From Nitrospinota bacterium (GTDB lineage: Bacteria > Nitrospinota_A > UBA7883 > JACRGQ01): 64,000 nt of DNA. The position numbers and the translations under genes are program-made. The stretch is taken from NCBI GenBank assembly GCA_029881495.1, contig JAOUMJ010000004.1, positions 28,476 through 92,475 on the forward strand. The letters are read 5' to 3'. Positions 8,357-56,486 of this stretch are shown piece by piece. The first letter of the stretch is position 1. Each line of letters starts with the position of its first letter. The notes under the pieces were generated by a model, which saw only the letters and a program-made list of their open reading frames with translations, did no database searches and had not been told where the DNA came from.

Positions 8357-10480
8357 ATGGATGTAAATGCTCGCGCCGGATATTTCGTCACAGGTACAGG
8401 CACAGGTGTAGGGAAGACCGTCGCGGCGGGAGCCGTCGCGTACCTTTTGAAAAAAGCGGGATACTCAACAGGGGTGATGAAACCTGTACAGACCGGGGCG
8501 AAGAGCGTAAAGGGGAAACTGGTATCGGAGGATTACGAATTTCTCCGCGCGGTAGCCGATACGGACGATCCTTATGAAACGGCCGTTCCGGCAATATTGA
8601 AAACTCCGCTCTCCCCGTATCACGCATCCCTTGCTGAAAGGGAGAAGGTGGATGTGGCCCATCTCGCGATCAGTTTCCAGAAGATGAAAGAGCGGTACGA
8701 GGTCGTAGTGGTCGAAGGGGCGGGGGGGTTGATGGTTCCGCTCACGGAAAATCTTTTCTGGCACCACTTCATCAAGATGATAGACCTTCCGTTGATAGTG
8801 GTGACAGGCGCGGAGCTTGGAATGATCCATCAGACCCTCTCCACGATCCTTTCTGCGGAGATGTATGGGCTGGAGATAGCCGGGATAATGATAATGGAGA
8901 CGAAGAAAAAGAATAATCCCGAGCCGGATATCAAGTGGCTCGAAAAAACTTCCGGCTATCCGGTGCTCGGAGTCCTCCCTCACACCTCTTCGGTTGCGGG
9001 GGCGAAGGTGAAGAAAAAGGCCTTCCACTCGCACGTTGAAAAACATATCAAGGCAAAACCTTTCGTCGATTATATCGAAAGGAAGGGGTGCGAAGCGGAG
9101 TGGAAACGGCTGAACGAAGCGGATCACAAATATGTATGGCACCCCTTTACCCAGATGGCGGATTGGGTGAAGGAGGAGACGCTTGTCATCGAATCTGCGA
9201 GCGGAATGAAGCTGAAGAGTATAACGGGGGAAGAGTATTACGACGGGCATTCCTCTTACTGGGTGAACGTGCATGGGCACGGCAATCCAGAACTTTCAAG
9301 AACGCTTGCCCGTGAAACTGCAAAGCTCGATCACTCCACATTCCTCGGATTGAGCAACAGGCCGGCGATTGATCTTGCTGAAAAGCTTGTGGAGATTACG
9401 CCAAAAGGTTTGAGCAAGGTATTCTTTTCCGATAACGGCTCCACCGCGGTGGAAGTCGGCATGAAGATGGCCGTGCAGTATTTCCGCCAGAGGGAGAAGG
9501 GGAAGAGCCGGAAGAAAAGGAAGTTCATCGCGCTTGGCGAGGCTTATCATGGCGATACGCTCGGCGCGGTTGCCGTAGGTGGAGTTGAGATATACAGAAA
9601 TATCTTCGGCCCGCTCCTTGCCGACGTGGTATTCACACCTTCGCCATACTGCTATCGGTGCCCATTGAAGAAGTTTCCGTCCGACTGTTCTCTTGCGTGC
9701 GCCGCGGAGATGGAGAAGTTGATAGTGGAGAACCACGAAGATATCGCGGCATTTGTTATAGAACCGATAGTCCAAGGGCCGGGGGGGATAATCGTGGCCC
9801 CTTCGGGCTATCTGAAAAGGGTGCGGGAGCTATGCACGAAATACGACATACTTATGCTTGCCGACGAGGTTGCCGTAGGGTTTGGCCGTACTGGAAAGAT
9901 GTTCGCCTGCGAACATGAAGAGGTTGAGCCGGATCTGATGGCGCTCTCAAAAAGCCTCGGTGCGGGACTTGTCCCGATAGCGGCGACGATGGCGACCGAT
10001 GAGATTTACGAAGCTTTTCTCGGGAAGTGGGAGGAGCAGAAGACGTTTTTTCACGGTCACACATTCACCGCCCACCCCCCGGCGTGCGCAGTCGCCCTGC
10101 AATCGCTGAATTTATACAGGAAGCAGGGGATTATCAGGCAGGTCGAGACGAAAAGCCAGGCTCTTGCCGATTCGCTTGTGAGGTTCGAGAACCTCCCGCA
10201 TGTAGGGGATATCCGGCAGAAGGGGATGATAGCCGGGATCGAACTCGTAAAGAACCGTGAAACAAAAGAACGTTTTGAGATAGCGGTTCGTGCGGGTAAC
10301 ATGGTCTCAAAGGAAGCGAGGAGGAACGGGCTGATAGTGCGCCCCCTGGGTGATACTCTGGTGCTCTTTCCGATCCTTTCCGTCAGTGAAGGCGATTTGA
10401 GAAAAATGACGGATATACTTTACAATTCGATCGCGGCTGTTACAGGTTCGTTCGAAAAGAACGAACCGTTTGTGAAATAG
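8357..10480 (+). CDS. bifunctional dethiobiotin synthetase / adenosylmethionine-8-amino-7-oxononanoate aminotransferase (BioD-BioA fusion)
   Basis: N-terminal ~230 aa BioD with P-loop GTGTGVGKT; C-terminal ~460 aa class-III aminotransferase with WHPFTQM, DEVAVGFGRTGKMFA and PLP-lysine region LSKSLGAG in one uninterrupted frame. Confidence 0.85.
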   Translation: MDVNARAGYFVTGTGTGVGKTVAAGAVAYLLKKAGYSTGVMKPVQTGAKSVKGKLVSEDYEFLRAVADTDDPYETAVPAILKTPLSPYHASLAEREKVDVAHLAISFQKMKERYEVVVVEGAGGLMVPLTENLFWHHFIKMIDLPLIVVTGAELGMIHQTLSTILSAEMYGLEIAGIMIMETKKKNNPEPDIKWLEKTSGYPVLGVLPHTSSVAGAKVKKKAFHSHVEKHIKAKPFVDYIERKGCEAEWKRLNEADHKYVWHPFTQMADWVKEETLVIESASGMKLKSITGEEYYDGHSSYWVNVHGHGNPELSRTLARETAKLDHSTFLGLSNRPAIDLAEKLVEITPKGLSKVFFSDNGSTAVEVGMKMAVQYFRQREKGKSRKKRKFIALGEAYHGDTLGAVAVGGVEIYRNIFGPLLADVVFTPSPYCYRCPLKKFPSDCSLACAAEMEKLIVENHEDIAAFVIEPIVQGPGGIIVAPSGYLKRVRELCTKYDILMLADEVAVGFGRTGKMFACEHEEVEPDLMALSKSLGAGLVPIAATMATDEIYEAFLGKWEEQKTFFHGHTFTAHPPACAVALQSLNLYRKQGIIRQVETKSQALADSLVRFENLPHVGDIRQKGMIAGIELVKNRETKERFEIAVRAGNMVSKEARRNGLIVRPLGDTLVLFPILSVSEGDLRKMTDILYNSIAAVTGSFEKNEPFVK

Positions 10481-13477: not shown

Positions 13478-13752
13478 TTTGGAACTCCTCCCGGTTTATG
13501 TAAGTTGAATTATGGTAATTTACCCTTGCCTTGAGGAAGTGTCAAATTAATTAAAAAAGTTCATTGAATTGCCATGAGCTATTTAAACATCTGAAAGTGA
13601 AGCGTTTTTGGAGATATCTGGAAATGTGCCTAAGGAAATAATGTTATGTATGATAACAGGTAGAATTGAGTAGCGGCTCTGGTTTGACCAGTGAACAGTA
13701 AACGCTGAATATATTGTTGAATGTTCAGCAACATTTCAGTAATATCCCAAAG

Positions 13753-14361
13753 GTGGAAACCAACGAAGATATCAAGGGTAAAATTCTCGAGGCGGCGATG
13801 GCGAGGTTTATCCATTACGGTTTTCATAAAACTACAATGGCGGAAATTGCCAAGGATTGCGGCATGTCAGCTGCGAACCTCTACCGGTTTTTCCAGAACA
13901 AGGCCGAGATAATCGTCACACTTGCGCTGAATCATTTTGAGGTGACATGGGAGAAGATGGAGGCGATCGTTGGCAACCGTACCCTTGCTTCAGCGGAAAA
14001 ACTTGAAAGCTTCTTTGTTCATCTCTTCAGATGCAACCGCGATCTGTTGCGCGAAAAGCCGAATATTTCAGAGGTGGTCGAGTTCTTCCTTAATGAACGC
14101 CCGGACATCGTAAAGGAGATGGTTTCCCGCGAAATCGTTACGCTGGAAAAAATTCTCGTAGATGGAAATGATTCGGGCGAATTCGCCATTGAGGATACCG
14201 CGGAAACCGCCAGGAATTTCAGGATGGCGTTTACTCCGTTTATCGTCACGCCGTTCCTTCTTCATATTATGGATAACAAGGTCATCGACCATGGCGACCT
14301 GGAAACGAGGCTGAAGAGTCTGCTGAAGCTCCTTTTGAAAGGTATATCCGCGTCGAATTAA
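13753..14361 (+). CDS. TetR/AcrR family transcriptional regulator
   Basis: N-terminal HTH region ILEAAMARFIHYGFHKTTMAEIAKDCGMSAANLYRFFQNK; GTG at 13753 with aaagg RBS; upstream of efflux genes. ORF track start is 13714. Confidence 0.8.
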   Translation: METNEDIKGKILEAAMARFIHYGFHKTTMAEIAKDCGMSAANLYRFFQNKAEIIVTLALNHFEVTWEKMEAIVGNRTLASAEKLESFFVHLFRCNRDLLREKPNISEVVEFFLNERPDIVKEMVSREIVTLEKILVDGNDSGEFAIEDTAETARNFRMAFTPFIVTPFLLHIMDNKVIDHGDLETRLKSLLKLLLKGISASN

Positions 14362-14403
14362 TAGATCGGCAAAAACCGAATTGGCTTAAAAGGTGTATTG
14401 AAA

Positions 14404-15936
14404 ATGATTAGTACATTCAGGAACGGAAAATATATTCTCTTTGCGGCCCCCTTGTTCGCTGTCGCGGTCGGATTCCTCGGAACCGCTGAATCGGCAAAGG
14501 GGGCGGGAGAGAGGATCATCTCTTCAGCCAGAGATATCAGGAATATTATCGGGAGCAACAATTACGATGTAAAGATCCTAGGCGAGCAGGTAAAGCGCGC
14601 GTCGGCTGTCGTGGAAGGGATCGAAGGGGCCTACTTCCCGATGCTTTCGCTCGACACCAGCATCATGGACGACAGAAAACAGCCGCTGAGCAATTTTCAG
14701 CCTGCGAGGGTGGAGAACACGCACTGGGGCGCGACGCTTATTCAGAGAACACCGATGGGGATCAATTTCTCGGCAGGGGTAACGAACGACACGGCTAAAC
14801 TTTACCAGTCCGACCCTCCAAACGATTTTCTTCCATATCCGGCAACGTTCAACCAGCCGGTGGTCTTCCTGAAGATGGAGATGGACATTCTTCAGGATCT
14901 CATGGGCTTTGTGAGCTTCAAGGAGTGGGATCAGTACCGGATAGACGAAGAGGTGTCGAAGATGCAGGTCGAACTTATAAAGCACAAGCTGTTCACCAGC
15001 AGTTCGGCGCTTCTCTGGAATACCAGGGAGATGATGGAGATGAAGTCGATCATCGAGGAGATGGTGACGAGGTTTGAAAAACTTGAAAAGGATGTTGATG
15101 CCAAGGTGCGCAAGAGGATTGCCGAGCCTGGGGACATCTACAAGCTCAAAGCGCTCGTCGCCCAGAGGAAGGCGGACGTTGTGGCGCTAGAGAGGACAGT
15201 GCGGGAGATAGAAAAATCGATCGCCGAAATTCTTTCTGTGCAGGAGGGGATTCGCTTCATGCCTGACAGGACGCTTGCGTCGCTGGAAAAGGGGATAGAC
15301 GCTTGCGAACAGGATATTCTCAGCCGGAAGGAGATGGATACCGCCTGGAGCAGGGAGTTCGACGTTCTTGAAAAAAATATCAGGCGCGGAGAGCTTGAAA
15401 AGGATATCAGGTACAGGAAGGCGCTCCCCGACCTGAAACTCGTTGGCTCCTACGCGAAGACCGGCACCGATTCAACCTTCGGAGACGCGTTTTCAAATAT
15501 CGTGGACCAGGACAAGCCGCAGGTATATGTCGGTTTGAATTTTTCCTGGCCGCTTTCCTCCAGCGTTGCGAAATCAAGGCGGGTATTCGGCGATACCGCG
15601 CTCGCAACCCAGGGGATGACATACGGCAAATTCTACGAAGGGAGCAGGGTTTTTCACGAATCGACTATCAGGAAAATCGGGCATCTGAGGGAAGAGGGGA
15701 AACTTTCAGATGAAGCTGTCGGATACGGCAGAAAACAGATAGACGATCTGCACAAGAGGTACAGGCAGGGGCGGGTAAGCATGTTCGAGCTTGTACAGGA
15801 GGAGAGCTCCGTGCTTCAAAGCGAGTTGACCCGCAAGAGGGTATGGGTTGAGAGGATAAATAATATCTACCAGTACCTTGGCCGCTTCGACAGGCTTAGT
15901 TGCGCCGATAGCGATCTTACGGCTGGAAGAGATTAA
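14404..15936 (+). CDS. TolC-family outer membrane efflux protein (putative)
   Basis: Signal peptide, long coiled-coil segments, ~510 aa; stop 3 nt before RND pump start. Family call is by architecture, not a diagnostic motif. Confidence 0.55.
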   Translation: MISTFRNGKYILFAAPLFAVAVGFLGTAESAKGAGERIISSARDIRNIIGSNNYDVKILGEQVKRASAVVEGIEGAYFPMLSLDTSIMDDRKQPLSNFQPARVENTHWGATLIQRTPMGINFSAGVTNDTAKLYQSDPPNDFLPYPATFNQPVVFLKMEMDILQDLMGFVSFKEWDQYRIDEEVSKMQVELIKHKLFTSSSALLWNTREMMEMKSIIEEMVTRFEKLEKDVDAKVRKRIAEPGDIYKLKALVAQRKADVVALERTVREIEKSIAEILSVQEGIRFMPDRTLASLEKGIDACEQDILSRKEMDTAWSREFDVLEKNIRRGELEKDIRYRKALPDLKLVGSYAKTGTDSTFGDAFSNIVDQDKPQVYVGLNFSWPLSSSVAKSRRVFGDTALATQGMTYGKFYEGSRVFHESTIRKIGHLREEGKLSDEAVGYGRKQIDDLHKRYRQGRVSMFELVQEESSVLQSELTRKRVWVERINNIYQYLGRFDRLSCADSDLTAGRD

Positions 15937-15939
15937 CCG

Positions 15940-18900
15940 ATGATCACATATTTCATAAAAAATCCGAAGGTCGTTGCTCTCATAACTCTTGCGATCGTGA
16001 TTGGGGGGATTATCAGTCTGTTGGCGATGAGGCGGGAGGCTTTCCCCAACGTCGATTTTGCCATGGCGACGATCACAACATTCTATCCGGGTGCCACGCC
16101 GGAAGATGTTGAGATACAGGTAACAAAAAAAATAGAAGACGAGTTGAGGGGCATAGAGGGGATAAAGCAGACGCGCTCCATCAGCCAGGAGGGGTATTCC
16201 GAGATAACCATTGTCGTAGATATAGATAATGTGAGCTCAAGGGAAGTGCTGGACGAAGTACAGCGAACCACCGACAGGGTGGTCGACCTCCCGGCTGAAC
16301 TCCCCGATCCCCCTCATTTCAACGAGATCAAGACGAAGCATTTCCCGGTTCTGGAGGTTTCGGTTCTCGGCGATGTTGACGAGGAGAAGTTAAGAAAGGT
16401 TGCCGATCAGCTGGAAGATGTTTTCGACATGAACAGCGGTGTGGCCGCGGTAAACAAGATCGGGTACAGGGAGCGCGAATACAGGATCTATATAGATCCC
16501 GTAAAAATGGGGAGATATCACGTAAGTTTCAACGAGGTGATACGGGCGATCGGCGCGAGCAATGTCGATACTCCCGGCGGCATATTCGAAAGCCGCCCGT
16601 TCAAGAAATCGGTCAGAACAGTAGGGTCGCTCAAGGAAGCCGAGATGTTTCTCGACGTTGTGGTTCGCACGAATCTTTCGGGCCAGGTCATACGCGTGCG
16701 TGATATCGCCACAGTGGACGATACGTATGAAGATCCGAGGGTGGTGGCGAAGACCAACGGCAAGCCGAGCATAATCCTGGTTGCCATGAAAAAGGAGCAT
16801 ACCGACATACTGAAATTGACCAAAGAGCTCAAGGAAGCGATTGCCGAATTCAGGAAGGGATTGCCGGAAGGGGTTGGCGTAATTGTCAGCAACGACGAGT
16901 CGGAAAGGACAAGGACACGCCTCGACATCATAATTTCCAATTCGATCATCGGATTTTTTCTCATGCTCATTGCCCTTATCGTATTCCTTGATCTGAGGAA
17001 CGCGCTTGTAACGTCTCTGGCGGCGCCAATCGTTATCCTTGTCACGCTCATTCTCATGAGCTTTTTAGGAATTACGTTCAACATGATCTCAATGCTGGCG
17101 GTGATAATCGCGCTCGGCATGTTCGTGGATAACAGCATCGTCATATCAGAAAATATTTTCAGGCTGAAGCAGACAGGATTGTCGATGGAAGAGGCGGCGA
17201 TGAAGGGGACGATAGCGATAGCCGCTCCCATAACGGCGACGGTACTAACTACTATCGCGGCGTTTGTTCCGATGATGGTTACCTCGGGCGTAATGGGGCA
17301 GTTCATTATTGCCATTCCGATAGTGGTCACATGCTCACTCCTTGCCTCCCTGTTCGATTCCTTTTTCCTCCTCCCGGCAAGGATAATCGCGCTGGACAGG
17401 GAAGCGGTCATAAAGGAATCACGGTGGTTCGCCTGGTGGAGACATCTGTTTGAAAGTTTCGTAAGGTTCTTCATCAGATACAAGTGGTCTTCGATCGCAC
17501 TTGCGAATCTTCTCCTTATTGGCGCACTGATATTTGCCGTGAAAAAGATAGACTTCATTCTCTTTCCGCCGGAAGGGGTCGACAGGTTTGCTGTCAAATA
17601 TCTTGCCCACCCCGGAACTCCCATTGAGGATGTGAACAGGGGGATAGAGAAAGTTGAAAACGCTCTGATGAGTCTTCCCTCCGATGAAGTGTACGCCATC
17701 ACTACGAGAACCGGCGTCCAGCAGATGGGCCTTGGTGACCCTCTATCCAGGGTCGGGGACAACGTGGGGATGATACTCGTATACCTGACGCCGGAGAACG
17801 AACGGAAAAGAACCGCGGCGGAAATAATATCCTGGCTGAGGGAGAATGTAGATATCTACGAGCCGTTTGAAATGATCCAGTTCGAGACCCTGGCGATGGG
17901 CCCACCTGTAGGAAAGGCGGTTACGGTCTCTGTGCAGGGGGATGACCTCGAAAAGCTGAAGGAACTAGCCGGACAGATATGGAAGTTCCTTTCCGATATC
18001 GACGGCGTGACGGACATCGATCAGGATCTAAAGCCCGGCATAAGGCAGTTGCGCGTTGAGATAAATAAGGGTGTTCGCGAAGAGATAGGCCTTACCGTAG
18101 CAGAGATCGCGGCCGCTCTTAGAACCGCGCAGGAAGGGGTCATCGCTTCAAAGGTCAGGAAGTATGATGATGATATTGATGTCCGCGTCCTTTTTTCAAA
18201 GGAGGCGAGAGGGAGCATGACCTCGCTGGAAAACCTTCTCATATCGGATGTGAGGGGAAACCTCATCCCTCTTCATAAAGTTGCGAACATCAGGGAGGTG
18301 GAGGGGCCGGAGCCGCGACGGCATTTTGATTACAGGCGTTCCATCACTATTACCGCCGGTGTCGACACCGATAAGGTCACTTCGGTGGAGGTGAACGCCG
18401 CGCTGAGAAAGGCGTTCGCTTTCATCCCGGAGAAGAATCCAGGTTATGTGCTGAAATTCGGAGGCGAAGAAGAGAGCACGATGGAGTCGATGTCGAGCCT
18501 TGCGCGCGCGATGGTCTTTGCGATCATCGGGATATTCTCGATACTCGTGGCGCTGTTTGGCTCGTACGCTCTGCCGTTTTTGATAATGTTCTCCATCCCT
18601 TTGGGATTCGTAGGGGTAATAGTAGGGTTTGCGGCCCACGACAAGCCTTTCGGCTTTCTGGCGATTATCGGGATGATAGGTCTTTCCGGCGTTATCGTAA
18701 ATTCGGCGATAGTGCTAATCGCCTTCATTGAGGACATGAGGAAAAATACTAAATTAAGTCTCGAAGAGTGTCTCGTACAGAGCGCCGGCACAAGGCTCCG
18801 CCCGATACTGCTGACGACGTTCACGACGGTGCTCGCGCTTTTCCCGACCGCGTACGGGATAGGAGGATTCGATCCGATGCTAGTTCCGATGACGCTTGCC

Positions 18901-19038
18901 ATGGCTTGGGGTCTCCTCTTTGGAACTCTCCTCACGCTACTTGTAATACCGTGCGGATACGCAGTGATAGAAGATGTAATCCAGTTCTCTAATAGAGTGC
19001 GGGGTAAAAAAGGGGAAAAGCATCCGGTAAAAATATAA
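15940..19038 (+). CDS. RND efflux transporter permease (AcrB/CzcA-like)
   Basis: 1032 aa, 12-TM architecture with two large periplasmic loops; N-terminal FIKNPKVVALITLAIVIGGI typical of AcrB family. Confidence 0.9.
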   Translation: MITYFIKNPKVVALITLAIVIGGIISLLAMRREAFPNVDFAMATITTFYPGATPEDVEIQVTKKIEDELRGIEGIKQTRSISQEGYSEITIVVDIDNVSSREVLDEVQRTTDRVVDLPAELPDPPHFNEIKTKHFPVLEVSVLGDVDEEKLRKVADQLEDVFDMNSGVAAVNKIGYREREYRIYIDPVKMGRYHVSFNEVIRAIGASNVDTPGGIFESRPFKKSVRTVGSLKEAEMFLDVVVRTNLSGQVIRVRDIATVDDTYEDPRVVAKTNGKPSIILVAMKKEHTDILKLTKELKEAIAEFRKGLPEGVGVIVSNDESERTRTRLDIIISNSIIGFFLMLIALIVFLDLRNALVTSLAAPIVILVTLILMSFLGITFNMISMLAVIIALGMFVDNSIVISENIFRLKQTGLSMEEAAMKGTIAIAAPITATVLTTIAAFVPMMVTSGVMGQFIIAIPIVVTCSLLASLFDSFFLLPARIIALDREAVIKESRWFAWWRHLFESFVRFFIRYKWSSIALANLLLIGALIFAVKKIDFILFPPEGVDRFAVKYLAHPGTPIEDVNRGIEKVENALMSLPSDEVYAITTRTGVQQMGLGDPLSRVGDNVGMILVYLTPENERKRTAAEIISWLRENVDIYEPFEMIQFETLAMGPPVGKAVTVSVQGDDLEKLKELAGQIWKFLSDIDGVTDIDQDLKPGIRQLRVEINKGVREEIGLTVAEIAAALRTAQEGVIASKVRKYDDDIDVRVLFSKEARGSMTSLENLLISDVRGNLIPLHKVANIREVEGPEPRRHFDYRRSITITAGVDTDKVTSVEVNAALRKAFAFIPEKNPGYVLKFGGEEESTMESMSSLARAMVFAIIGIFSILVALFGSYALPFLIMFSIPLGFVGVIVGFAAHDKPFGFLAIIGMIGLSGVIVNSAIVLIAFIEDMRKNTKLSLEECLVQSAGTRLRPILLTTFTTVLALFPTAYGIGGFDPMLVPMTLAMAWGLLFGTLLTLLVIPCGYAVIEDVIQFSNRVRGKKGEKHPVKI

Positions 19039-19110
19039 TTTGAACTAGCGGCGCAATACACGCTTAATGGCGGTATGAGATCGACTTGACCATGTGAAGA
19101 GAGGATTCTG

Positions 19111-21408
19111 ATGGCGAAGCTCAATTTTGGTTCGAAACTAGCGCTTAAGGTAATAAAGTACCGTTTCCAGATCATCATACTCACCGTTCTTTCAGTAGCG
19201 GTCTCATCCGCCGGTCTTGCATATCTCACCTTCTCCAGCGACAGCAGGGCGTATTTCGGTCCCGATAATCCACAGCTAAAGGCTCTCGAAAAGCTGGAGA
19301 ATACATATTCTAGGGACGACTCCGTTCTCCTTGCGATTGCGCCGAAGGACGGTAACATCTTTTCCGCCAGGACACTTTCGATTATCGGCGAGATAACCGA
19401 TGAATTCTGGAAGCTCCCCTTCTCCAGCAGGGTGGAATCCCTCACCAACTACCAGCATACTTCGGCAGACGGCGACGAGCTTATAGTGGAGAACCTTGTA
19501 AAGGAGGCCGATGAACTGACGGGCGCTGACCTTGACCGCATAAGGGAGATCGCCGTAAACGAACCGTTCCTGAAGGATCGCCTTGTTTCTTCCAAAGGGA
19601 GCGTTGCCGGCGTCGTAGCTCTTTTCAGAATGCCGGAGAATAAGAACGAGGCGACAAAGGAGGTCGTTGGGAAAGTTCGTGCGTATGTGAAGGAGGTTAA
19701 AAAGAAATACCCCGACATGGAAATATACCTGGTCGGGAGCCTGATGGTGGATACCGCTTTCGCGGAAGCGGGGGAGGACGACATGAGGAGCCTCATCCCT
19801 ATCATGTTCGCGATAATGGTTTTCTTCATGTGGGTGATGCTAAGGTCGGTTACTGCAATGCTTGTCACCACGCTCGTAATTATTTTTTCGTCGGTCGTCT
19901 CCATGGGGATTGCGGGCTGGCTCGGAATCGTGCTTACCGCTCCGTCGGCGAATTCGCCTATAGTCATACTCACGCTTTCGATAGCGGATTCGATACATGT
20001 CCTCGTTACCATGCTGCAGGAGATACGAAAAGGGAGATCGCGCGAAGAGGCGATAGTGGAATCGATGCGCATAAACCTTTCTCCGGTGTTTCTGACCACC
20101 ATTACCACTTCGATAGGTTTTCTCAGCATGAACTTTTCGGATTCTCCCCCTTTCTGGGATCTCGGAAATATAGTATCGATCGGGGTGCTGGTAGCTTTTA
20201 TATATTCGGTTACGTTTCTCCCTGCGATGATGGCCATCCTCCCGATCAAGGTGGGAGAAGAGAAAACTTTCGGCCCGCCGATAATAGACCGGTTCGCCGA
20301 TTTTGTCGTATCCAAAAGTACGGCTCTTATGTGGGGTATGGCTCTTTTTATAATTTTTTCCGTATCGGGCATCTCCAGGATAGACGTGAACGATCTGTAC
20401 CTCGATTATTTCGGAAAGAAGTTCCAGTTCAGGAAGGATACCGATTTCATTGTGGCAAATCTCACCGGTGTAAGCATGGTCGAATACGACCTCTCGTCGG
20501 GTGAAGAGGGGGGGGTATCCTCTCCAGAATATCTTGACACTCTTGAGCGTTTCACTGTTTGGCTCCTTGCCCAGCCGGAAGTAAAACAGATAAGCGGATT
20601 CCATGACGTCATGAAGAGGCTGAACAAAAGCATGCATGGCGACGACCCCGCCTATTACAAGGTACCGGACAGGAGGGATCTTGCCGCGCAGTACCTCCTT
20701 CTGTACGAGATGTCGCTCCCGTTCGGGCTCGATATGAACAACATGATAAACGTCGACAAGTCCTCCACAAGGTTCAGGATATCGCTTATCGACATTTACA
20801 ACCGGGAGATACGGCAGTTCGAAAGGAGGGCGACCGCGTGGCTCGAAGAGAATGCTCCGCCGTCGATGCATGTTGACGGCACAGGGATGTCGATCATCTT
20901 CGCGCACATCACCGACAGGACTATCAACTCAATGTTCAGGGGTACCGCCTTCGCCCTCTTTCTTATATCTGGGCTACTCATACTCGCGTTCATGAATCTC
21001 CGCATAGGGTTGATAAGCCTCCTGCCGAACATAGTTCCGGCGTTGATGACATTCGGTCTATGGGGTTATACGGTGAGCCAGGTCGGTCTCGCCGCTTCGG
21101 TCATCGCGGCGCTCAGCCTCGGGATAGTGGTGGACGACACGATACACTTTCTCTCGAAATATCTTAGGGCAAGAAAGGAGCTCGGCCTAAGTCCAGAAAT
21201 GGCGGTGAGGTACTCCTTCCATACGGTCGGCAGGGCGCTTGTAATAACTTCAGTCATACTCGTTGCCGGATTCGGGATATTGACCCTCTCAAATTTCAAG
21301 GTGAATTCAAACATAGGCACCCTCACCGCGATAGCGATAGCGATAGCGCTCATAGTCGATTTTCTTTTCCTTCCCGCCCTTCTGCTTAAACTTGAAAAGA
21401 GAAGATGA
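19111..21408 (+). CDS. MMPL/SSD-type RND superfamily exporter (HpnN-like)
   Basis: 765 aa; two repeats each of a periplasmic domain followed by a 5-6 TM bundle, typical of MMPL exporters. Confidence 0.75.
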   Translation: MAKLNFGSKLALKVIKYRFQIIILTVLSVAVSSAGLAYLTFSSDSRAYFGPDNPQLKALEKLENTYSRDDSVLLAIAPKDGNIFSARTLSIIGEITDEFWKLPFSSRVESLTNYQHTSADGDELIVENLVKEADELTGADLDRIREIAVNEPFLKDRLVSSKGSVAGVVALFRMPENKNEATKEVVGKVRAYVKEVKKKYPDMEIYLVGSLMVDTAFAEAGEDDMRSLIPIMFAIMVFFMWVMLRSVTAMLVTTLVIIFSSVVSMGIAGWLGIVLTAPSANSPIVILTLSIADSIHVLVTMLQEIRKGRSREEAIVESMRINLSPVFLTTITTSIGFLSMNFSDSPPFWDLGNIVSIGVLVAFIYSVTFLPAMMAILPIKVGEEKTFGPPIIDRFADFVVSKSTALMWGMALFIIFSVSGISRIDVNDLYLDYFGKKFQFRKDTDFIVANLTGVSMVEYDLSSGEEGGVSSPEYLDTLERFTVWLLAQPEVKQISGFHDVMKRLNKSMHGDDPAYYKVPDRRDLAAQYLLLYEMSLPFGLDMNNMINVDKSSTRFRISLIDIYNREIRQFERRATAWLEENAPPSMHVDGTGMSIIFAHITDRTINSMFRGTAFALFLISGLLILAFMNLRIGLISLLPNIVPALMTFGLWGYTVSQVGLAASVIAALSLGIVVDDTIHFLSKYLRARKELGLSPEMAVRYSFHTVGRALVITSVILVAGFGILTLSNFKVNSNIGTLTAIAIAIALIVDFLFLPALLLKLEKRR

Positions 21409-21455
21409 CCGGATGCCGGTTTTTAAAAAGTGTAGAATGGGTGAGCAGCGAAGAG

Positions 21456-22289
21456 ATGGCGCGCCCTTCATATTTTAATAGGAGAATTGCCGTGAGATTA
21501 TTTGCGATTCCGTTTTTTATTTTCCTGACACTCGTCGCGCCTGCGACAGCAGAGACGCCGGAGGAGAAAGGGCTCGCCATAGCGCTGGAAGCGGAGAAGC
21601 GCGACAGGGGATGGGGGGATTCCACATCCGAGCTTGAGATGATCCTTATGAACCGGCATGGGGAGACCAGTATTCGCCAGATGAGGGGGGAGTCGCTTGA
21701 AGTGGAGGGTGACGGCGACAAATCGCTGATGGTTTTCGATAATCCCCGCGACGTGAAAGGCTCCGCCATGCTTACATGGTCGCACAAGAATGGGGACGAC
21801 GACCAGTGGCTCTACCTTCCGGCCCTTAAACGTGTGAAGAGGATATCGTCTTCCAGTAAATCGGGCTCCTTCATGGGTTCGGAGTTCTCATATGAAGACC
21901 TCTCCAGCAGGGAGGTGGAGAAGTACAGCTACCGCTTCCTTCGGGAAGAACCGTGCCCGTGCGAAGAGCTGAAATCGCTTACCTGTTTTGTCTCTGAAAG
22001 TTTTCCGGTGGATAAAAGCTCCGGATACACAAGAATTGTCAGCTGGCTCGATACGAACGACTACCGGTCGTGCAAGGTTGAGTTCTACGACAGGAAGAGC
22101 TCCCATTTGAAAACTCTTCTGTCCAGCAATTATAAAAGATTTCTCGACAAATTCTGGAGGCCGATGAGGCTCGACGTCACGAATCACCAGTCGGGGAAGA
22201 GTACAACGCTGGAGTTCAAGGAATACAAATTTAAAACGGGATTAAAAGATTCGGATTTCAATCAGAACGCTCTCATGAGATTCAAGTAG
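21456..22289 (+). CDS. periplasmic LolA-like / outer-membrane lipoprotein-sorting-like protein (putative)
   Basis: Signal peptide (VRLFAIPFFIFLTLVAPATA); soluble ~250 aa beta-rich protein; start overlaps MMPL stop. Family assignment tentative. Confidence 0.4.
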   Translation: MARPSYFNRRIAVRLFAIPFFIFLTLVAPATAETPEEKGLAIALEAEKRDRGWGDSTSELEMILMNRHGETSIRQMRGESLEVEGDGDKSLMVFDNPRDVKGSAMLTWSHKNGDDDQWLYLPALKRVKRISSSSKSGSFMGSEFSYEDLSSREVEKYSYRFLREEPCPCEELKSLTCFVSESFPVDKSSGYTRIVSWLDTNDYRSCKVEFYDRKSSHLKTLLSSNYKRFLDKFWRPMRLDVTNHQSGKSTTLEFKEYKFKTGLKDSDFNQNALMRFK

Positions 22290-22305
22290 GGGTGTGGGAG
22301 CGGGT

Positions 22306-23556
22306 ATGAAAGGCGTTGTCGGTCCGGCTGTTCGGTTGATGTGGGGCGTTCTATTTTTCATTGCTCTTCTCCACGTAGAATCGCATGCCGCGGAGATCTC
22401 CGGTTATATCGAAGGGGAGGCCAGGATATTTCCATCTTCTCCTCTTTACGACGGGCAGGAGAACCACTCCGGCTCAGTTGCGGTACTGTCGGAGTTTTAC
22501 CAGGAGCTCGGCCCAACCTCCGCAATGACTATCACGCCATTTGCCAGGTTGGATTCGGGTGATCCGAACAGGACCCATTTCGACCTGAGGGAGTTCTTCT
22601 TCCTTCTTCATGGGGAGTGGTGGGAGGTTCGCGCCGGTATCGACAAGGTCTTCTGGGGTGTGACGGAATCCGTGCACCTTGTCGACATAGTGAACCAGAC
22701 AGACATGCTTGAATCGTTTGACGGTGAGGAGAAGTTCGGTCAGCCGATGCTGAAACTCTCAATTGCGGGAGACGTCAAAGGGATCGATCTTTTCATTCTC
22801 CCCCTCTTCAGGGAGAGAAATTTTGCAGGCGAGGGGGGGCGTTTGCGCAGTGAAATACTTGTGGAAGGGGACGAGGCCGCTTATGAAAGCGTAAACAGGG
22901 AAAAGAGTGTCGATTTTGCGGTGCGTTACAGCTATACGTCGGGGGGATTCGATCTTGGCATTTCGTATTTCAAGGGGACCGGCAGGGAGCCGTCGCTTCG
23001 CCTTAAACGGAACGACATGGGATTTCCAGAGATAGACGCGAAAGGGAACATTCATCTCTTCCCGTATTATGAGCAGATCACGCAAGCGGGGGTCGATATG
23101 CTGCTGGTGCTCGATGCGTGGCTGCTGAAACTGGAGTCGATATACAGAACGGGGCAATCCGACAGGGACTGGATGAAAAACGATTTCGCATCTTCGGCGC
23201 TCGGCATTGAATACACGGTATACGGGGTCGCCGGTAGCGGCGCCGATGTAGGCATTCTCGGGGAGTGGGTTTACGACGACAGGGGTGATTCCGCCGTCTC
23301 CGCGCTCAACAACGACCTGATGGCGGGGCTGAGGTTTTCACTAAATGACGTTTCAGGCTCCACCGCGCTCCTTGGATATATCCATGATTATAAAAATAGC
23401 TCTTCTTTCCTCACGCTGGAGGGGAGCAGAAGGCTAAATGACCATCTGAAGCTGGAGCTGCAGGGATTTTACTTCCTCTTCTCCCCGGAGGATGATCCGT
23501 CATGGGTGATAAGGAGAGACTCATTCATGGAGGCTCGGCTCGTCTGGTATTTTTAG
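22306..23556 (+). CDS. putative outer membrane beta-barrel protein
   Basis: Signal peptide (LFFIALLHVESHAA), alternating beta-strand pattern, terminal aromatic (ends ...RLVWYF). Confidence 0.45.
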   Translation: MKGVVGPAVRLMWGVLFFIALLHVESHAAEISGYIEGEARIFPSSPLYDGQENHSGSVAVLSEFYQELGPTSAMTITPFARLDSGDPNRTHFDLREFFFLLHGEWWEVRAGIDKVFWGVTESVHLVDIVNQTDMLESFDGEEKFGQPMLKLSIAGDVKGIDLFILPLFRERNFAGEGGRLRSEILVEGDEAAYESVNREKSVDFAVRYSYTSGGFDLGISYFKGTGREPSLRLKRNDMGFPEIDAKGNIHLFPYYEQITQAGVDMLLVLDAWLLKLESIYRTGQSDRDWMKNDFASSALGIEYTVYGVAGSGADVGILGEWVYDDRGDSAVSALNNDLMAGLRFSLNDVSGSTALLGYIHDYKNSSSFLTLEGSRRLNDHLKLELQGFYFLFSPEDDPSWVIRRDSFMEARLVWYF

Positions 23557-23962
23557 CTGCTGATAAAAATCGGCAGTAGCAAACAGCTCGGGAAAACTTT
23601 GAATCGATATAAAAGTACGCCGCTGTAACCCGGTTACCCGCTTTTTTCTTCTAAATGATTTATTTTTTTATCTATTTTTGTTTGTCCATCAACACTTTAT
23701 TAAATACAAAATGCAATAAGTAACGAAAAATAAGTATGTTTTATATTAAATATCATTCTCATTATTCGGTATATCAAGGAGGCCTGTATCTATAAATATA
23801 CATATATGAGCAAAGATGGTATATATTGCACATTTGTGCATGTCGGGATTATTGACGAGTTTTTACCAGTTATATCAACGGTTTCACTTTCCTTTAGTTG
23901 ATTTTAATCTCATTTCAAGTTAAATTAGATGGAATTATATTGAATTAGGGTGGTAATCGGCT
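23557..23962 (+). promoter_or_regulatory. AT-rich intergenic island upstream of the sigma-54 activator gene, containing palindrome TGCACATTTGTGCA
   Basis: Visibly AT-rich relative to flanking coding sequence; perfect 6-bp inverted repeat TGCACA-TT-TGTGCA near 23829-23842; multiple A/T tracts. Confidence 0.4.
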
Positions 23963-25240
23963 ATGGATAGCGTCAAAGAAATGAACGATGATTCATCAGG
24001 GAGTGATGAGATCTTCCCTGAACCGAAGATAGCTCTTTCCGGTGCACAGGTTTCCGGCGACGATTATGCGACATCCTCTACCGAGGATACGGAGGAGCCT
24101 TTGAATTCCGACTCCGATTCTTTTTCCGACTCCGCGCCCCTGCCCGGCGCTGTTCCGACTGCCGAGACGCAATCAACCCCTGTTTCTGAAGCAGCTGTTC
24201 CGGCAAATCCGTTCTCACGGATAATCGGCAACAGCCAGCAGCTGAACAAGGTTTTTGATTCTGTAAGGAAGATTGCCGACACCGATTCCACTGTGCTGAT
24301 ACTCGGCGAATCGGGAACCGGCAAGGAGCTTTTCGCCAGGGCGATACATGATCATTCGCCGAGAGCAAAAAACAATTTTGTTGTAGTGAACTGCGGCGCG
24401 ATACCGGAGGATCTCCTTGAAAGCGAGCTCTTCGGCCACGAGAAGGGATCGTTTACCGGCGCCATAAGGACGAGGCTCGGGAAATTCGAGCTTGCCAACC
24501 ACGGCACGATCTTCCTCGACGAGATAGGGGACATGAGCCCTTCCCTCCAGGTGAAGCTGTTAAGGATACTGCAACAGCAGGAGTTCGAGCGCGTCGGCGG
24601 AAACCAGGTTATCCGCACGTCGGTAAGGGTTCTTGCCGCCACGAACCGCGACCTCCAGAAGGCGATAGCCGAAAAGAAGTTCCGCGAGGACCTCTTTTAC
24701 CGCCTCAACGTAATCCCGCTCAACCTCCCTCCCCTGCGGGAGAGGAAGGACGATATCCCGAAACTTATTGAGCATTTCATGGGGCGCTTCAACAGGAGCA
24801 AGAACCGAAGCGTCAGCTCCGTCACCTCCGAAGCGATGAGCGCGCTGATAAAGTACGACTGGCCCGGCAATATAAGGGAGCTTGAGAATATCTGCGAGCG
24901 GATGGTTGTCATGACCGGCGAAGGGGAGATAGGGATGGATGATCTGCCGTTCCATATCGTCCCGGACAACGTGGAGAGCGAACAGCTCCTTCACGACATG
25001 CTCCTTGTAGGTAGCGAGGAGGTTGATCTCTTTGTTCCTCAGGACATCCCGCCCGGCCTGGTGGTAAAACTTCCGGATGAGGGGATAAGCCTCAAGGATG
25101 TTGTCGAGGAGTATGAAACGATGCTGATAATGCAGGCGCTCGAAAGGTCTAACTGGGTAAAGAACAAGGCGGCCACGCTCCTTGGACTAAACCGCACTAC
25201 CCTCGTCGAAAAACTGAAGAAAAAGGGTATCAACCGCTAG
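23963..25240 (+). CDS. sigma-54-dependent transcriptional activator (bEBP) with acidic low-complexity N-terminus
   Basis: AAA+ sigma-54 interaction domain ([35 protein letters not shown]), C-terminal Fis-type HTH ([21 protein letters not shown]); first ~95 aa are S/D/E-rich with no REC/GAF/PAS. Confidence 0.9.
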
Positions 25241-53723: not shown

Positions 53724-56168
53724 TTAGTTCGCGAAGAGCTCCTTGTGTTTCAGTTTCCATTCGATATTCTCCAGCGTTGCGCTTGCCACTCTGCCGTATA
53801 CGGAGAGCGGCTCCCCTTTTACCAGATCCTGTAGTTCCGCGGTTGCGTTTTCATCCTGGCTCAGCTTCAGCTGGCTGTCGCTCCTCACATACCGTACCCA
53901 GCTGTTCTGCTTGTCGTCCGGGTAGAGGTTTAGGACAGCTGTGGAATATTTCTGCACGGCGTCGAAATCGCGCGAGAGATAGGCTGATTCTATGAGCTGG
54001 TAGCGGCTCTCGACCACGAACCATTGGTCAGCCTGGCCAGGCATCTTTTCCTGTTTGTCGACCGCCATTTCGAAGTAGGTGATCGCGTTCTTGTATTCAT
54101 GCCGCGCCTTGTGCATCAGACCGAGATAGTAGGCGGTCTTTGAAACCCTTTCGAAATCCTGGTCAAGGGAGATCGCCCGCACATATGTCGTCATCGCCTC
54201 GCTGTTCTTCTTCTGAATCAGGTAGATATCCCCGAGTGTATGGACAGCCTCCGGGGCGTGGATTGAGCTGTCAAGCAGGTCCGCAAATGGGAGGAGCGTC
54301 TCTTCCGCTTCGTCGTATCTCTTAAGGAGGGCAAGTGTCGTTCCCTTTCCAAGCCGTATCCTCTCCTTGAGGAATCCCTGCCTGTCGAGCCTTTCGGCCT
54401 CTTCAAAACGCGCGAGCGCCTTGTCGTTCAATCCCATTTCGGAGTAGGCATCGGCAACCTTCACCATTACATTGGCGTCCTTGATATCCGTGAGGAACGG
54501 ATCAAAGTTGTCGTAATATGTCGCGAGTATGGTGTAGAACCCTTCCTGCTCATGCAGTCCGTGAATAAGCTCGTAGAGGTCGTTCTTGACGAGTTTCACA
54601 ACAGGTTCCTCCATCTGCGAGTCGGGGAAGTCCACCATCATCTTTTTCAATGCAAGTATCGATTCAATGTATCTCTTCTCCTGGTTGAGGAGTTTAGCTT
54701 TCTGGAACAGCGCGTTTCTTGACTGCGGCGTGTTCGGATGTTTTTTGATTATGTGGTTGTATGTATTGTAGGGTTCGAAGTAATCGGGATAGTCGTATAT
54801 GAGCGCGTCCTTTGGTTCGATAAGTTTTTTCGGCGCGTGACCGAGGGCGGCAAGCCTCAGCCTGGAGTCGAGGCCGTGCGGGAGTTCCGGTATTTTCCTT
54901 GCCTGAATCCCTAGAATTCTCATCGCTTCCATCGGCTGGTTTTTCGAAACATAAATGTCGGCGAGCCTGTTCACGGAGGCTCTCCCCTCGTCGCCGTTGG
55001 GGAAAAGGTTTATCAGCTTTACGTATAGATCCATAGCCTCGTCGAACTTGTTTAGCTGGTAATAGGTGTCGGCAAATCTGAAAAGTGTGTCGGGGTTCGA
55101 CATAACGAATGAGGGCCACTTAAGGTTCGAATCTTCGAACATTTTAAGGGCGGTCTTGTACCGTTTTTTGAAATAGAACGCCTCTGCGATCTTGAACCTT
55201 GCCTCACGCACTTCCTTTGCTTCGGGGTAGAGGAGAAGTATCTTTTCAAGCTCGTTGTATGCGAGAGCGTAATCTCCATTCTTCAGGTATATGTTTGCCC
55301 TGCCGGTGAGCGCACTGACGGTGAATTTCCCTTCAGGCTCCGATTCGATAATGCTTTTATATATGGCGAGAGCTTCAACGTCGAGCCCCTGATCTATATA
55401 GAGGTTCGCGATCCTCATTTTCGCCCTGTTCGCCGCCATAGAGCTGGGGAATGAGGCGGCGACAAGCCTGAACGCATTTATCGCTTCAGGGATCCTTTCA
55501 TTCTTTTTCTTTGCTATGCGGTAGACCGTTTCGGCAAGCATGAACATCGCTTTTTCCTGGTATTTGCTGTCGGGATACTGCCGAATGAATTCGGTAAGTT
55601 TGATTTCGGCGTCATCGAATTTGTTTTTCTGGAACGCCATCATACCCTCGGTATAGAGGTCCTTTCCGCCGAATTTCTGGATATCCTCAACCTTTGCGAG
55701 AAGCTCCTTTTCCTTTTTTTTCAATTCAGCTCTCTTCTCTTTCCCTTTGCTGTTTTTATCCACAGCAAGGAGTCCTGCCCTGTTTTTCAGTCTAATGGTC
55801 AGATCTTTTTTATCCGTTGAAAGGGAGTGGTATACGGATGTTTTAAAATCCTTCAGGTATATATTGGTGATCGTTTCGGCGTTGTCGGTAAGCATCACCG
55901 TTATCTTCTCAACCCTTTTATCGGCAAGCTTATCAGCGTCAAGCTGGGCTCCTATCCCGCTTTGTGGAGTGACTATGGTGATAACCTTGTCTTCCAGGTT
56001 AGGGTCAATGGAATACTCCATTGCCGGTTCGTCAAATGAAATTACCACGGAGGAGAACTGCTCCCCCTCGACCAGCGCGATCTTATTTATCTTGGTAAAG
56101 GAGGCCTCGGATATTCCCGCAAAGACAAGCATCAGAACCGATACTTTTACTGCAATAAATTTTCTCAT
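53724..56168 (-). CDS. secreted TPR-repeat protein (~815 aa)
   Basis: Signal peptide (MRKFIAVKVSVLMLVFAGISEA); many TPR-like repeats; AAAGGA RBS before ATG. ORF track start is 56225. Confidence 0.75.
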   Translation of the reverse strand: MRKFIAVKVSVLMLVFAGISEASFTKINKIALVEGEQFSSVVISFDEPAMEYSIDPNLEDKVITIVTPQSGIGAQLDADKLADKRVEKITVMLTDNAETITNIYLKDFKTSVYHSLSTDKKDLTIRLKNRAGLLAVDKNSKGKEKRAELKKKEKELLAKVEDIQKFGGKDLYTEGMMAFQKNKFDDAEIKLTEFIRQYPDSKYQEKAMFMLAETVYRIAKKKNERIPEAINAFRLVAASFPSSMAANRAKMRIANLYIDQGLDVEALAIYKSIIESEPEGKFTVSALTGRANIYLKNGDYALAYNELEKILLLYPEAKEVREARFKIAEAFYFKKRYKTALKMFEDSNLKWPSFVMSNPDTLFRFADTYYQLNKFDEAMDLYVKLINLFPNGDEGRASVNRLADIYVSKNQPMEAMRILGIQARKIPELPHGLDSRLRLAALGHAPKKLIEPKDALIYDYPDYFEPYNTYNHIIKKHPNTPQSRNALFQKAKLLNQEKRYIESILALKKMMVDFPDSQMEEPVVKLVKNDLYELIHGLHEQEGFYTILATYYDNFDPFLTDIKDANVMVKVADAYSEMGLNDKALARFEEAERLDRQGFLKERIRLGKGTTLALLKRYDEAEETLLPFADLLDSSIHAPEAVHTLGDIYLIQKKNSEAMTTYVRAISLDQDFERVSKTAYYLGLMHKARHEYKNAITYFEMAVDKQEKMPGQADQWFVVESRYQLIESAYLSRDFDAVQKYSTAVLNLYPDDKQNSWVRYVRSDSQLKLSQDENATAELQDLVKGEPLSVYGRVASATLENIEWKLKHKELFAN

Positions 56169-56486
56169 ATAAAATAATCCTTTCACTCTCACACCATAGG
56201 TAGCAAGATGCGGGCCAAAATGCAACCCGGATAGCCCGATACCTTTTATATTGCCACTTTCGTGTCTGACTAATATGTGAGCAATATAAGTGCCAACGAA
56301 TCAAAGGCTTTAAGTCCTGAATAATTGGCGGGTATTTGGGAAAAACCTGGTCTGGATATCTGTATTTTGTTTTGAAACCGGCAAAATTTGCCGGGTGTGG
56401 GGCGGAATTATCCTTTTATCATGATCTCTACGGAAAAAGGGACGGATTTCGTCTGATAAATACCTGTAACGGCAACCTGAGGCGGG

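Follow-up and report, generated by a model that had tools for sequence, protein, structure and literature searches.

The studied system nearest to the locus described here is AmeABCD of Castellaniella defragrans, which consists of a DUF1302 barrel, a DUF1329 protein of the LolA superfamily, a Ycf48-like protein and an RND transporter of the HAE3 type (PMC6394551). Mutants without it tolerate monoterpenes less well and accumulate more Nile Red (PMC6394551), and the AmeABCD-equivalent ORM2a 'Nanopod' cluster is among the most expressed ones in a benzene-degrading member of the Desulfobacterota (PMC13101534). A related set is found in aryl-polyene clusters, where ApeM (RND), ApeL (LolA-like) and ApeN (LolB-like) are proposed to put an aryl-polyene lipid into the outer membrane (PMC8253772). 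Here, we analyse three consecutive genes of a Nitrospinota bacterium, i.e., an MmpL/HpnN-like RND transporter, a LolA-like carrier and a predicted outer-membrane barrel, which we refer to as the trio. They are part of a stretch of 64,000 nucleotides from contig JAOUMJ010000004.1 (assembly GCA_029881495.1), called the window in the following; all positions refer to it and are collected in Table 1.

The trio resembles AmeABCD in that both combine an HAE3/MMPL-type RND transporter, a periplasmic protein of the LolA superfamily and an outer-membrane barrel, with neither a HlyD-type adaptor nor TolC. A further likeness would be the tie to the tolerance or handling of hydrophobic compounds. However, AmeABCD has four parts, including a DUF1302 barrel of 605 residues, a DUF1329 protein of 451 residues and the Ycf48/BNR-like protein, whereas the carrier of the trio is a PF17131 protein of 265 residues, its barrel (416 residues) is without Pfam family and its RND gene comes first. 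No Ycf48/BNR-like gene is found within 13.7-25.2 kb of the window or among the conserved neighbours. With ApeL, ApeM and ApeN, compared by description, the trio shares the combination of RND transporter, LolA-like chaperone and outer-membrane acceptor. In contrast to the trio, ApeN is a LolB-like DUF3261 protein and no integral barrel, and the ape genes form part of a cluster for biosynthesis. Both AmeABCD and ApeLMN are distinct from the trio.

More distant parallels exist as well. LolCDE-LolA-LolB follows the same scheme of an inner-membrane extractor, a soluble LolA-fold carrier and an outer-membrane acceptor, but the putative extractor of the trio is a proton-driven RND transporter instead of an ABC transporter, its carrier is a PF17131 protein and its acceptor would be a barrel rather than a lipoprotein. 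AcrAB-TolC is likewise RND-driven with one component per envelope compartment, whereas the trio lacks both a membrane-fusion protein and a duct of the TolC kind, its RND transporter is of the small MmpL/HpnN type and its barrel is porin-like. MmpL4/5 differ from the trio by relying on MmpS adaptors in place of a LolA-like carrier and a barrel. For HpnN, no partner proteins of the periplasm or outer membrane are encoded with it (PMC6394551). By gene order alone (TetR-MMPL-carrier-hypothetical), the trio can also be likened to operons from Bacteroidota, i.e., the TetR-(ABC)-MMPL-'lipoprotein-sorting protein'-hypothetical operons of P. gingivalis and P. intermedia, which are upregulated 13-136-fold under iron limitation (PMC10434189).

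That is, a generic public annotation of the parts as well as related architectures are already known. What is new is the three-part form, i.e., a short PF17131 carrier combined with an 18-strand barrel of about 400 residues that has neither family model nor structure, which has not been described as a system. We consider it probable that the trio acts as one trans-envelope export module, which is carrier-mediated and employs neither a membrane-fusion protein nor TolC.

Conservation and components of the trio

Homologues were collected with phmmer followed by rounds of hmmbuild and hmmsearch. Synteny was counted with the barrel as anchor, for which 80 loci were kept; the denominators 73 and 64 in the following are the loci with enough upstream DNA. 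The 80 loci stem from Nitrospinota, Desulfobacterota, Nitrospirota, Gamma- and Alphaproteobacteria, Acidobacteriota, Planctomycetota, Verrucomicrobiota, Omnitrophota, Latescibacterota, Myxococcota and others, and their proteobacterial hosts include Vibrio, Salinimonas, Alteromonas and Cycloclasticus. Directly 5' of the barrel gene, a LolA-like open reading frame (ORF) on the same strand is present in 68/73 loci according to phmmer (E-values from 3.6e-32 to 2.7e-106), while tblastn identifies a LolA-like gene at this place in 65/73. Both the RND and the carrier gene are adjacent in 53/66 loci, and some RND homologue is found inside the locus in 60/66. The RND-carrier-barrel trio is a conserved unit across more than ten phyla, with an adjacency far beyond chance. 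The co-occurrence anticipated by the initial annotation of this DNA is found across Nitrospinota, Desulfobacterota, Nitrospirota, Gamma- and Alphaproteobacteria, Acidobacteriota, Planctomycetota, Omnitrophota, Latescibacterota and others, and the secreted proteins are of the expected kinds, with a LolA-superfamily carrier and a predicted outer-membrane beta-barrel.

A homologue of the window's TetR-family regulator lies just 5' of the RND gene in 16/64 loci (30-42% identity). Besides TetR, a clustering of all ORFs reveals no further neighbouring gene family that recurs in more than 18/80 loci. Over 48 loci, the three proteins diverge from pair to pair in a correlated manner (r of 0.62-0.76, Mantel p of 0.001), which fits inheritance as a unit; shared phylogeny alone would give such a correlation, too.

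In the window, the three ORFs have the same direction on the + strand, as initially annotated. The first one matches Pfam's MMPL family (PF03176) in two stretches with 126.2 bits, given a gathering threshold of 20.5. This agrees with the inner-membrane MMPL exporter that had been proposed, where export itself is the presumed activity. The best NCBIfam match is the HAE3 model TIGR00921 (6.7e-56), which with 189.7 bits stays below its cut-off of 351.9, such that the protein is to be classified as HAE3-like, yet outside of trusted TIGR00921 membership. The cut-offs of the HpnN models TIGR03480 and NF052374 are missed, too (99.7 vs. 751.85 and 54.6 vs. 1100, respectively), and the NCBIfam actII/MMPL score likewise falls far short of its cut-off. 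Hydropathy and AlphaFold2 secondary structure place helices at residues 18-38, 210-376, 391-423 and 593-763, and mixed alpha/beta domains at 40-208 and 430-590. That is, the protein follows the plan of 12 transmembrane helices (TM), where TM1 and TM7 are each followed by a periplasmic domain. Its predicted fold is nearest to MmpL3, MmpL4 and HpnN, i.e., it groups with the MmpL/HpnN class and not with AcrB; sequence identity to HpnN and mycobacterial MmpL exporters is just 12-16%. Among 32 homologues, no variation occurs at D293 and H296 of TM4 or at D675 and H679 of TM10, while at least 90% conserve D676. The same conservation of TM4/TM10 residues is observed for 58 locus-derived RND homologues. 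Judged from these residues, the proton relay looks intact and the transporter active.

The carrier covers positions 2-184 of the 184 positions of the PF17131 profile (LolA_like, now TP_0789-like) with 212.5 bits (threshold 30). It is 59% identical to PDB entry 3BK5, a structural-genomics entry from Vibrio parahaemolyticus (E-value 6.8e-88), and matches LolA3 of P. gingivalis (PDB 9TP6) with an E-value of 3.5e-35; both are solved structures from the same PF17131 family. Since 3BK5 is also 82% identical to the carrier of the Vibrio aquaticus trio locus (L057), an orthologue of the trio's middle component already has a solved structure. DUF1329 is matched with 24.2 bits (threshold 23.1), covering merely 47 residues (106-152) of the 368-position profile, which seems to indicate superfamily kinship and not membership. 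No LolA model from Pfam or NCBIfam is matched.

According to the initial annotation, the stop codon of the RND gene overlaps the next start. The respective ATGA overlap is present at 21405-21408, but for the longest carrier ORF only. The carrier more likely starts with GTG 21492 rather than with ATG 21405, because AGGAG is found 7 nucleotides before the GTG, the resulting signal peptide is short, homologues agree and two gene calls yield 265 residues. The latter are NCBI's MDH5541839.1 and the corresponding gene predicted on a 94%-identical contig, while other gene callers report 294 residues. The signal peptide from GTG 21492 has 20 residues, namely MRLFAIPFFIFLTLVAPATA (ending in APATA; cleavage by inspection), and is followed by ETPEEK. 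A short signal peptide and the conserved mature N-terminus ETPEEK are common to 68 carrier homologues of other loci, and a lipobox is absent in 64/69 members of the carrier family. Given the short signal peptide and the missing lipobox, the carrier should be soluble in the periplasm, in line with the signal-peptide-bearing LolA-like protein initially described.

For the barrel, no match is found in Pfam or NCBIfam even at an E-value of 10, and no PDB sequence is matched. Its start is most likely ATG 22306, while the alternative GTG 22294 is unlikely. The predicted structure shows 18 strands (predicted local distance difference test of 89.7). Together with a signal peptide (cleaved between VESHA and AEISG by inspection) and the C-terminal aromatic residue already noted in the initial annotation, this even strand number marks the protein as a putative outer-membrane beta-barrel by generic criteria. 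An assignment to a DUF1302-like family is not demonstrable by sequence match, however: the window protein does not match DUF1302 (PF06980) at an E-value of 10, and weak sub-threshold matches are confined to 3/32 homologues (best E-value 0.0017). Sequence membership in the OprD/Occ and AlgE 18-strand channels fails as well.

The best-conserved part of the barrel is a non-strand segment of 32 residues (114-145) between strands 5 and 6. Its mean identity is 0.79, and 11 of its positions are invariant, among them E121, H124, D127, N130, Q131 and D133. By canonical topology, this segment would be extracellular loop 3. In many porins, loop 3 constricts the channel. The listed invariant residues also prompted the idea of the barrel being an enzyme, which was set aside; the adjacent serine is not invariant.

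In many barrel homologues, the N-terminal part contains a SPOR domain or else one or two AMIN domains (P0246, P0252, P0330, P0358, P0371, P0250, P0163), and P0053 bears SH3-like domains. Such variants would be tethered to peptidoglycan. The peptidoglycan-binding AMIN and SPOR domains support a periplasmic N-terminus of the barrel and its location in the outer membrane. A profile search against 1.84 billion representatives at 50% identity assigns 3,514 clusters to the barrel family at an E-value of at most 1e-3 and 1,456 at an E-value of at most 1e-30. When each species is represented by a single genome, at least 577 encoded relatives are found.

Genomic setting

The trio is located at the end of a cluster of six same-strand ORFs (13714-23556) with inter-gene gaps of 3 to 83 bp, for which details are given in Table 1. 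The gaps are compatible with a co-transcription of the trio with the TetR gene and the AcrB-like pump, and TetR likely represses the whole cluster.

Table 1. Genes of the six-gene cluster with window positions and supporting matches.
Feature	Position	Strand	Evidence and remarks
TetR-family regulator	13714..14361	+	Pfam TetR_N 1.6e-14, plus TetR_C_27; opens the six-gene cluster
Divergent TolC-like outer-membrane factor	14398..15936	+	Pfam OEP 6.5e-12, three stretches
AcrB-like (HAE1-type) RND permease	15940..19038	+	Pfam ACR_tran 1.7e-182, full length
MmpL/HpnN-like (HAE3-like) RND transporter, putative energised inner-membrane part	19111..21408	+	765 residues; Pfam MMPL 1.8e-36
LolA-like (PF17131/TP_0789-like) carrier, predicted soluble and periplasmic	21492..22289	+	265 residues; PF17131 5e-63
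Predicted 18-strand outer-membrane beta-barrel, unnamed family	22306..23556	+	416 residues; predicted structure, C-terminal WYF

Within the window, the TolC-like and AcrB-like genes separate the TetR gene from the trio. The TolC-like protein has no PDB sequence match, and no ORF for a HlyD-type or membrane-fusion protein is found in 13.7-19.1 kb or anywhere in the cluster. The TolC-like gene belongs with the AcrB-like pump and not with the conserved trio; the pair is missing from nearly all other trio loci. Both genes may have been inserted into a TetR-RND-carrier-barrel unit, because TetR homologues usually sit directly before the RND gene. This layout is shared by the 94%-identical contig (L081), and a metagenome-assembled genome (MAG) of Terriglobia independently shows OEP and AcrB-like genes, a 365-residue ORF of no family and then the trio (L059:415-9081). 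The initial view of the trio as distinct from the upstream AcrB-like pump thus applies to most genomes, while here both share one same-strand cluster behind TetR.

The flanks of the cluster contain housekeeping genes (aroC, a bioD-bioA fusion, purF, pdxJ, ruvA, ruvB and rpe). Neither are lipid-biosynthesis genes present beside the module nor hydrocarbon-catabolic genes in the window. The apparent BioD-BioA fusion is a single ORF (8357-10480) with dethiobiotin-synthetase-like (AAA_26) and class-III aminotransferase domains, which comes after genes for a BioH/BioC-like hydrolase and methyltransferase.

Promoter and terminator scans of the cluster are at chance level. A possible operator is seen some 90 bp 5' of the TetR gene, where 18 bp form an imperfect palindrome (TTTGGAGATATCTGGAAA, 13607-13624). 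The barrel gene is followed by a 400-bp AT-rich intergenic stretch (23557-23962), where a weak hairpin with T-run at about 23625-23650 is left uncalled by the terminator scan, and by the gene of a sigma-54 activator without receiver domain (23963-25240). The latter was rejected as a driver of the cluster, since no sigma-54 promoter match exists in or before the cluster. The sole exact match within the window, i.e., a perfect sigma-54 consensus (TGGCACTTATATTGCT) at 56280-56295 on the - strand, is about 55 nucleotides upstream of an 833-residue ORF (53724-56225, - strand).

In other bacteria, the context of the trio varies between clades, which fits a generic exporter of lipids or hydrophobic compounds. 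On Sulfitobacter plasmids, a type I polyketide synthase (PKS) gene is directly followed by MMPL, carrier and GalE genes and then by a distant barrel relative (27% identity, E-value 3e-25). This PKS-coupled version of the module is found on plasmid NZ_CP085169.1 of Sulfitobacter sp. DSM 110093 (L090/L091, 140154-153840), where the PKS gene measures 7.7 kb. In Marinobacterium aestuarii as well as in two MAGs, one Halioglobus-like and one from Pseudomonadales, the trio is part of an XrtA/PEP-CTERM locus, which is identified by above-cut-off matches to PrsR (749 bits), PrsT (581-688 bits) and the TIGR03694 acyltransferase (240 bits). The trio is placed between PrsR and PrsT, with the acyltransferase and a PepA-like PEP-CTERM protein nearby (L076:5353-14036, L083:2858-17248, L087:4712-13974). 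For the respective gammaproteobacterial clade, the cargo might accordingly be of the acyl-amino-acid type. A general PEP-CTERM/XrtA association was rejected, since it is confined to few gammaproteobacterial loci (L076, L083/84, L087/88) and absent from the window.

Plasmid p1 of Pseudoalteromonas rhizosphaerae (L089, 23.9 kb) carries the trio, where the barrel gene is transcribed divergently from the RND and carrier genes and where recombinase and integrase genes of the gamma-mobile-trio type are adjacent. Given this plasmid and recombinase setting, mobility of the module is possible. Three genomes that are not related to each other encode a ThiF-nitroreductase fusion and an EryCIII-like glycosyltransferase at a distance of few kb from the module (L083:9537-12802, L087:14932-17695, L085:14939-17224). 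In Nitrospina gracilis, a YcaO gene is additionally nearby, and the carrier-barrel pair of strain 3/211 adjoins six tandem paralogues of GerE-family regulators.

Transport model and alternatives

The families and folds of the components, their conserved linkage and the conserved charged transmembrane residues are established by the above results. With regard to the hand-off between the components, the direction of transport and the class of cargo, we infer the following steps. Driven by the proton gradient, the RND transporter would lift a hydrophobic or amphiphilic cargo, i.e., a lipid or lipid-like metabolite or a hydrocarbon that has partitioned into the membrane, from the inner membrane and pass it to the soluble LolA-like protein, whose hydrophobic cavity would shield the cargo on its way across the periplasm. 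The 18-strand barrel would then take the cargo and either insert it into or free it through the outer membrane. Conserved loop 3 of the barrel probably folds into the lumen and may act as a specificity or gating element. In the Nitrospinota bacterium, the module would most likely serve inducible efflux or envelope protection rather than be the exporter of a biosynthetic cluster, because it is probably co-regulated with the HAE1-like pump by TetR.

Extended to all clades, the trio may represent a widespread undescribed route for lipids and hydrophobes, where the RND transporter loads the PF17131 carrier, a dedicated barrel receives the cargo, the near-invariant loop 3 gates its passage and clade-specific supply lines feed the route. 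The latter would be TetR-controlled efflux, PKS lipids and acyl-amino-acid lipids from exosortase loci. We put this extension forward tentatively, as a reading that falls a little short of evenly balanced.

Several points weigh against a joint export module. The 80 loci and the long homologues of the barrel contain neither RND-LolA nor LolA-barrel fusions. About 13/66 loci are without adjacent RND gene; for instance, Nitrospina gracilis 3/211 holds the carrier-barrel pair (L085:7173-9224) with no RND gene next to it. Because of such loci, a different protein of the inner membrane may also serve as partner of barrel and carrier. Furthermore, the barrel topology was deduced solely from the order of secondary-structure elements, and co-transcription solely from the short gaps between the genes.

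Among the alternatives, we consider a housekeeping role in building the outer membrane unlikely, albeit worth keeping in mind. Here, the trio would supply the outer membrane at all times with a lipid of the cell's own envelope, e.g., a hopanoid-like lipid, an ornithine or N-acyl-amino-acid lipid or a glycolipid, as HpnN or MmpL3 do. The predicted RND fold with its closeness to MmpL3, MmpL4 and HpnN would suit this role, as would the weak sequence matches to HpnN models, the linkage to PKS and exosortase-associated acyltransferase in other clades and the wide distribution of the module. However, HpnN equivalog scores are far under the cut-off, the genes around the cluster in the window are housekeeping genes with none for lipid biosynthesis, and the co-location with TetR and AcrB-like/TolC-like genes is typical of inducible efflux. 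Those bacterial RND, MmpL and HpnN proteins that have been characterised are exporters, which argues against a reversed use of the trio for hydrophobe uptake. In that case, the barrel would admit, e.g., long-chain alkanes, the carrier would move them inward and the RND transporter would deliver them to the inner membrane. An uptake role was suggested for TOL_3187/TOL_3188 of Thalassolituus oleivorans, where an MMPL and LolA-like fusion is upregulated 42-fold on n-C28 and the product of the next gene, a domain-less predicted porin, is detected on n-C28 only (PMC6304351). The high expression of the AmeABCD-type cluster in a benzene-degrading member of the Desulfobacterota would be in accordance with uptake as well (PMC13101534). 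On the other hand, the search with a gammaproteobacterial barrel gave no Thalassolituus entry among the 120 matches listed, such that the link to TOL_3187/TOL_3188 is unconfirmed. The window is also free of hydrocarbon-catabolic genes, and the ameABCD phenotype is a reduced tolerance, which fits efflux (PMC6394551). Overall, uptake appears highly improbable.

An auxiliary sorting of lipoproteins, i.e., the LolA-like protein carrying acylated proteins to the outer membrane, has an even slimmer chance to be true. The carrier is a member of the LolA superfamily and NCBI names it 'outer membrane lipoprotein-sorting protein', but its partner is an RND transporter instead of a LolCDE-type ABC transporter, Pfam reports PF17131 and a marginal DUF1329 stretch instead of a LolA model, and the acceptor would be an integral barrel and no LolB-like lipoprotein. 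Moreover, family member LolA3 of P. gingivalis binds LolB very weakly and is without the LolA arginine, with the LolB leucine also missing (PMC13103446). Of the envelope-spanning route for a lipid or lipoprotein in the initial annotation, the route itself is supported by the family assignments and the co-occurrence, while lipoproteins are unlikely to be its cargo. That the three genes are mere neighbours without joint function is hardly credible, given that order and strand are kept in 53/66 loci of distant phyla while other neighbours vary. The export module is thus the reading we prefer.

To our knowledge, the passage of hydrophobic compounds through the aqueous periplasm is solved for few cargoes only, i.e., for the Lol, Lpt and Mla pathways. 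If true, the module adds a proton-driven, carrier-mediated periplasmic route, which would be common in marine and sediment bacteria and also be present in Vibrio. Culturable hosts of the trio exist. The module may explain long-chain-alkane proteome signals, the strong upregulation that oral Bacteroidota show when iron is limiting and the existence of 'LolA3' as a puzzling paralogue. Finally, it would provide a function for a large family of 'hypothetical protein' barrels as well as for the orphan crystal structures 3BK5 and 9TP6.

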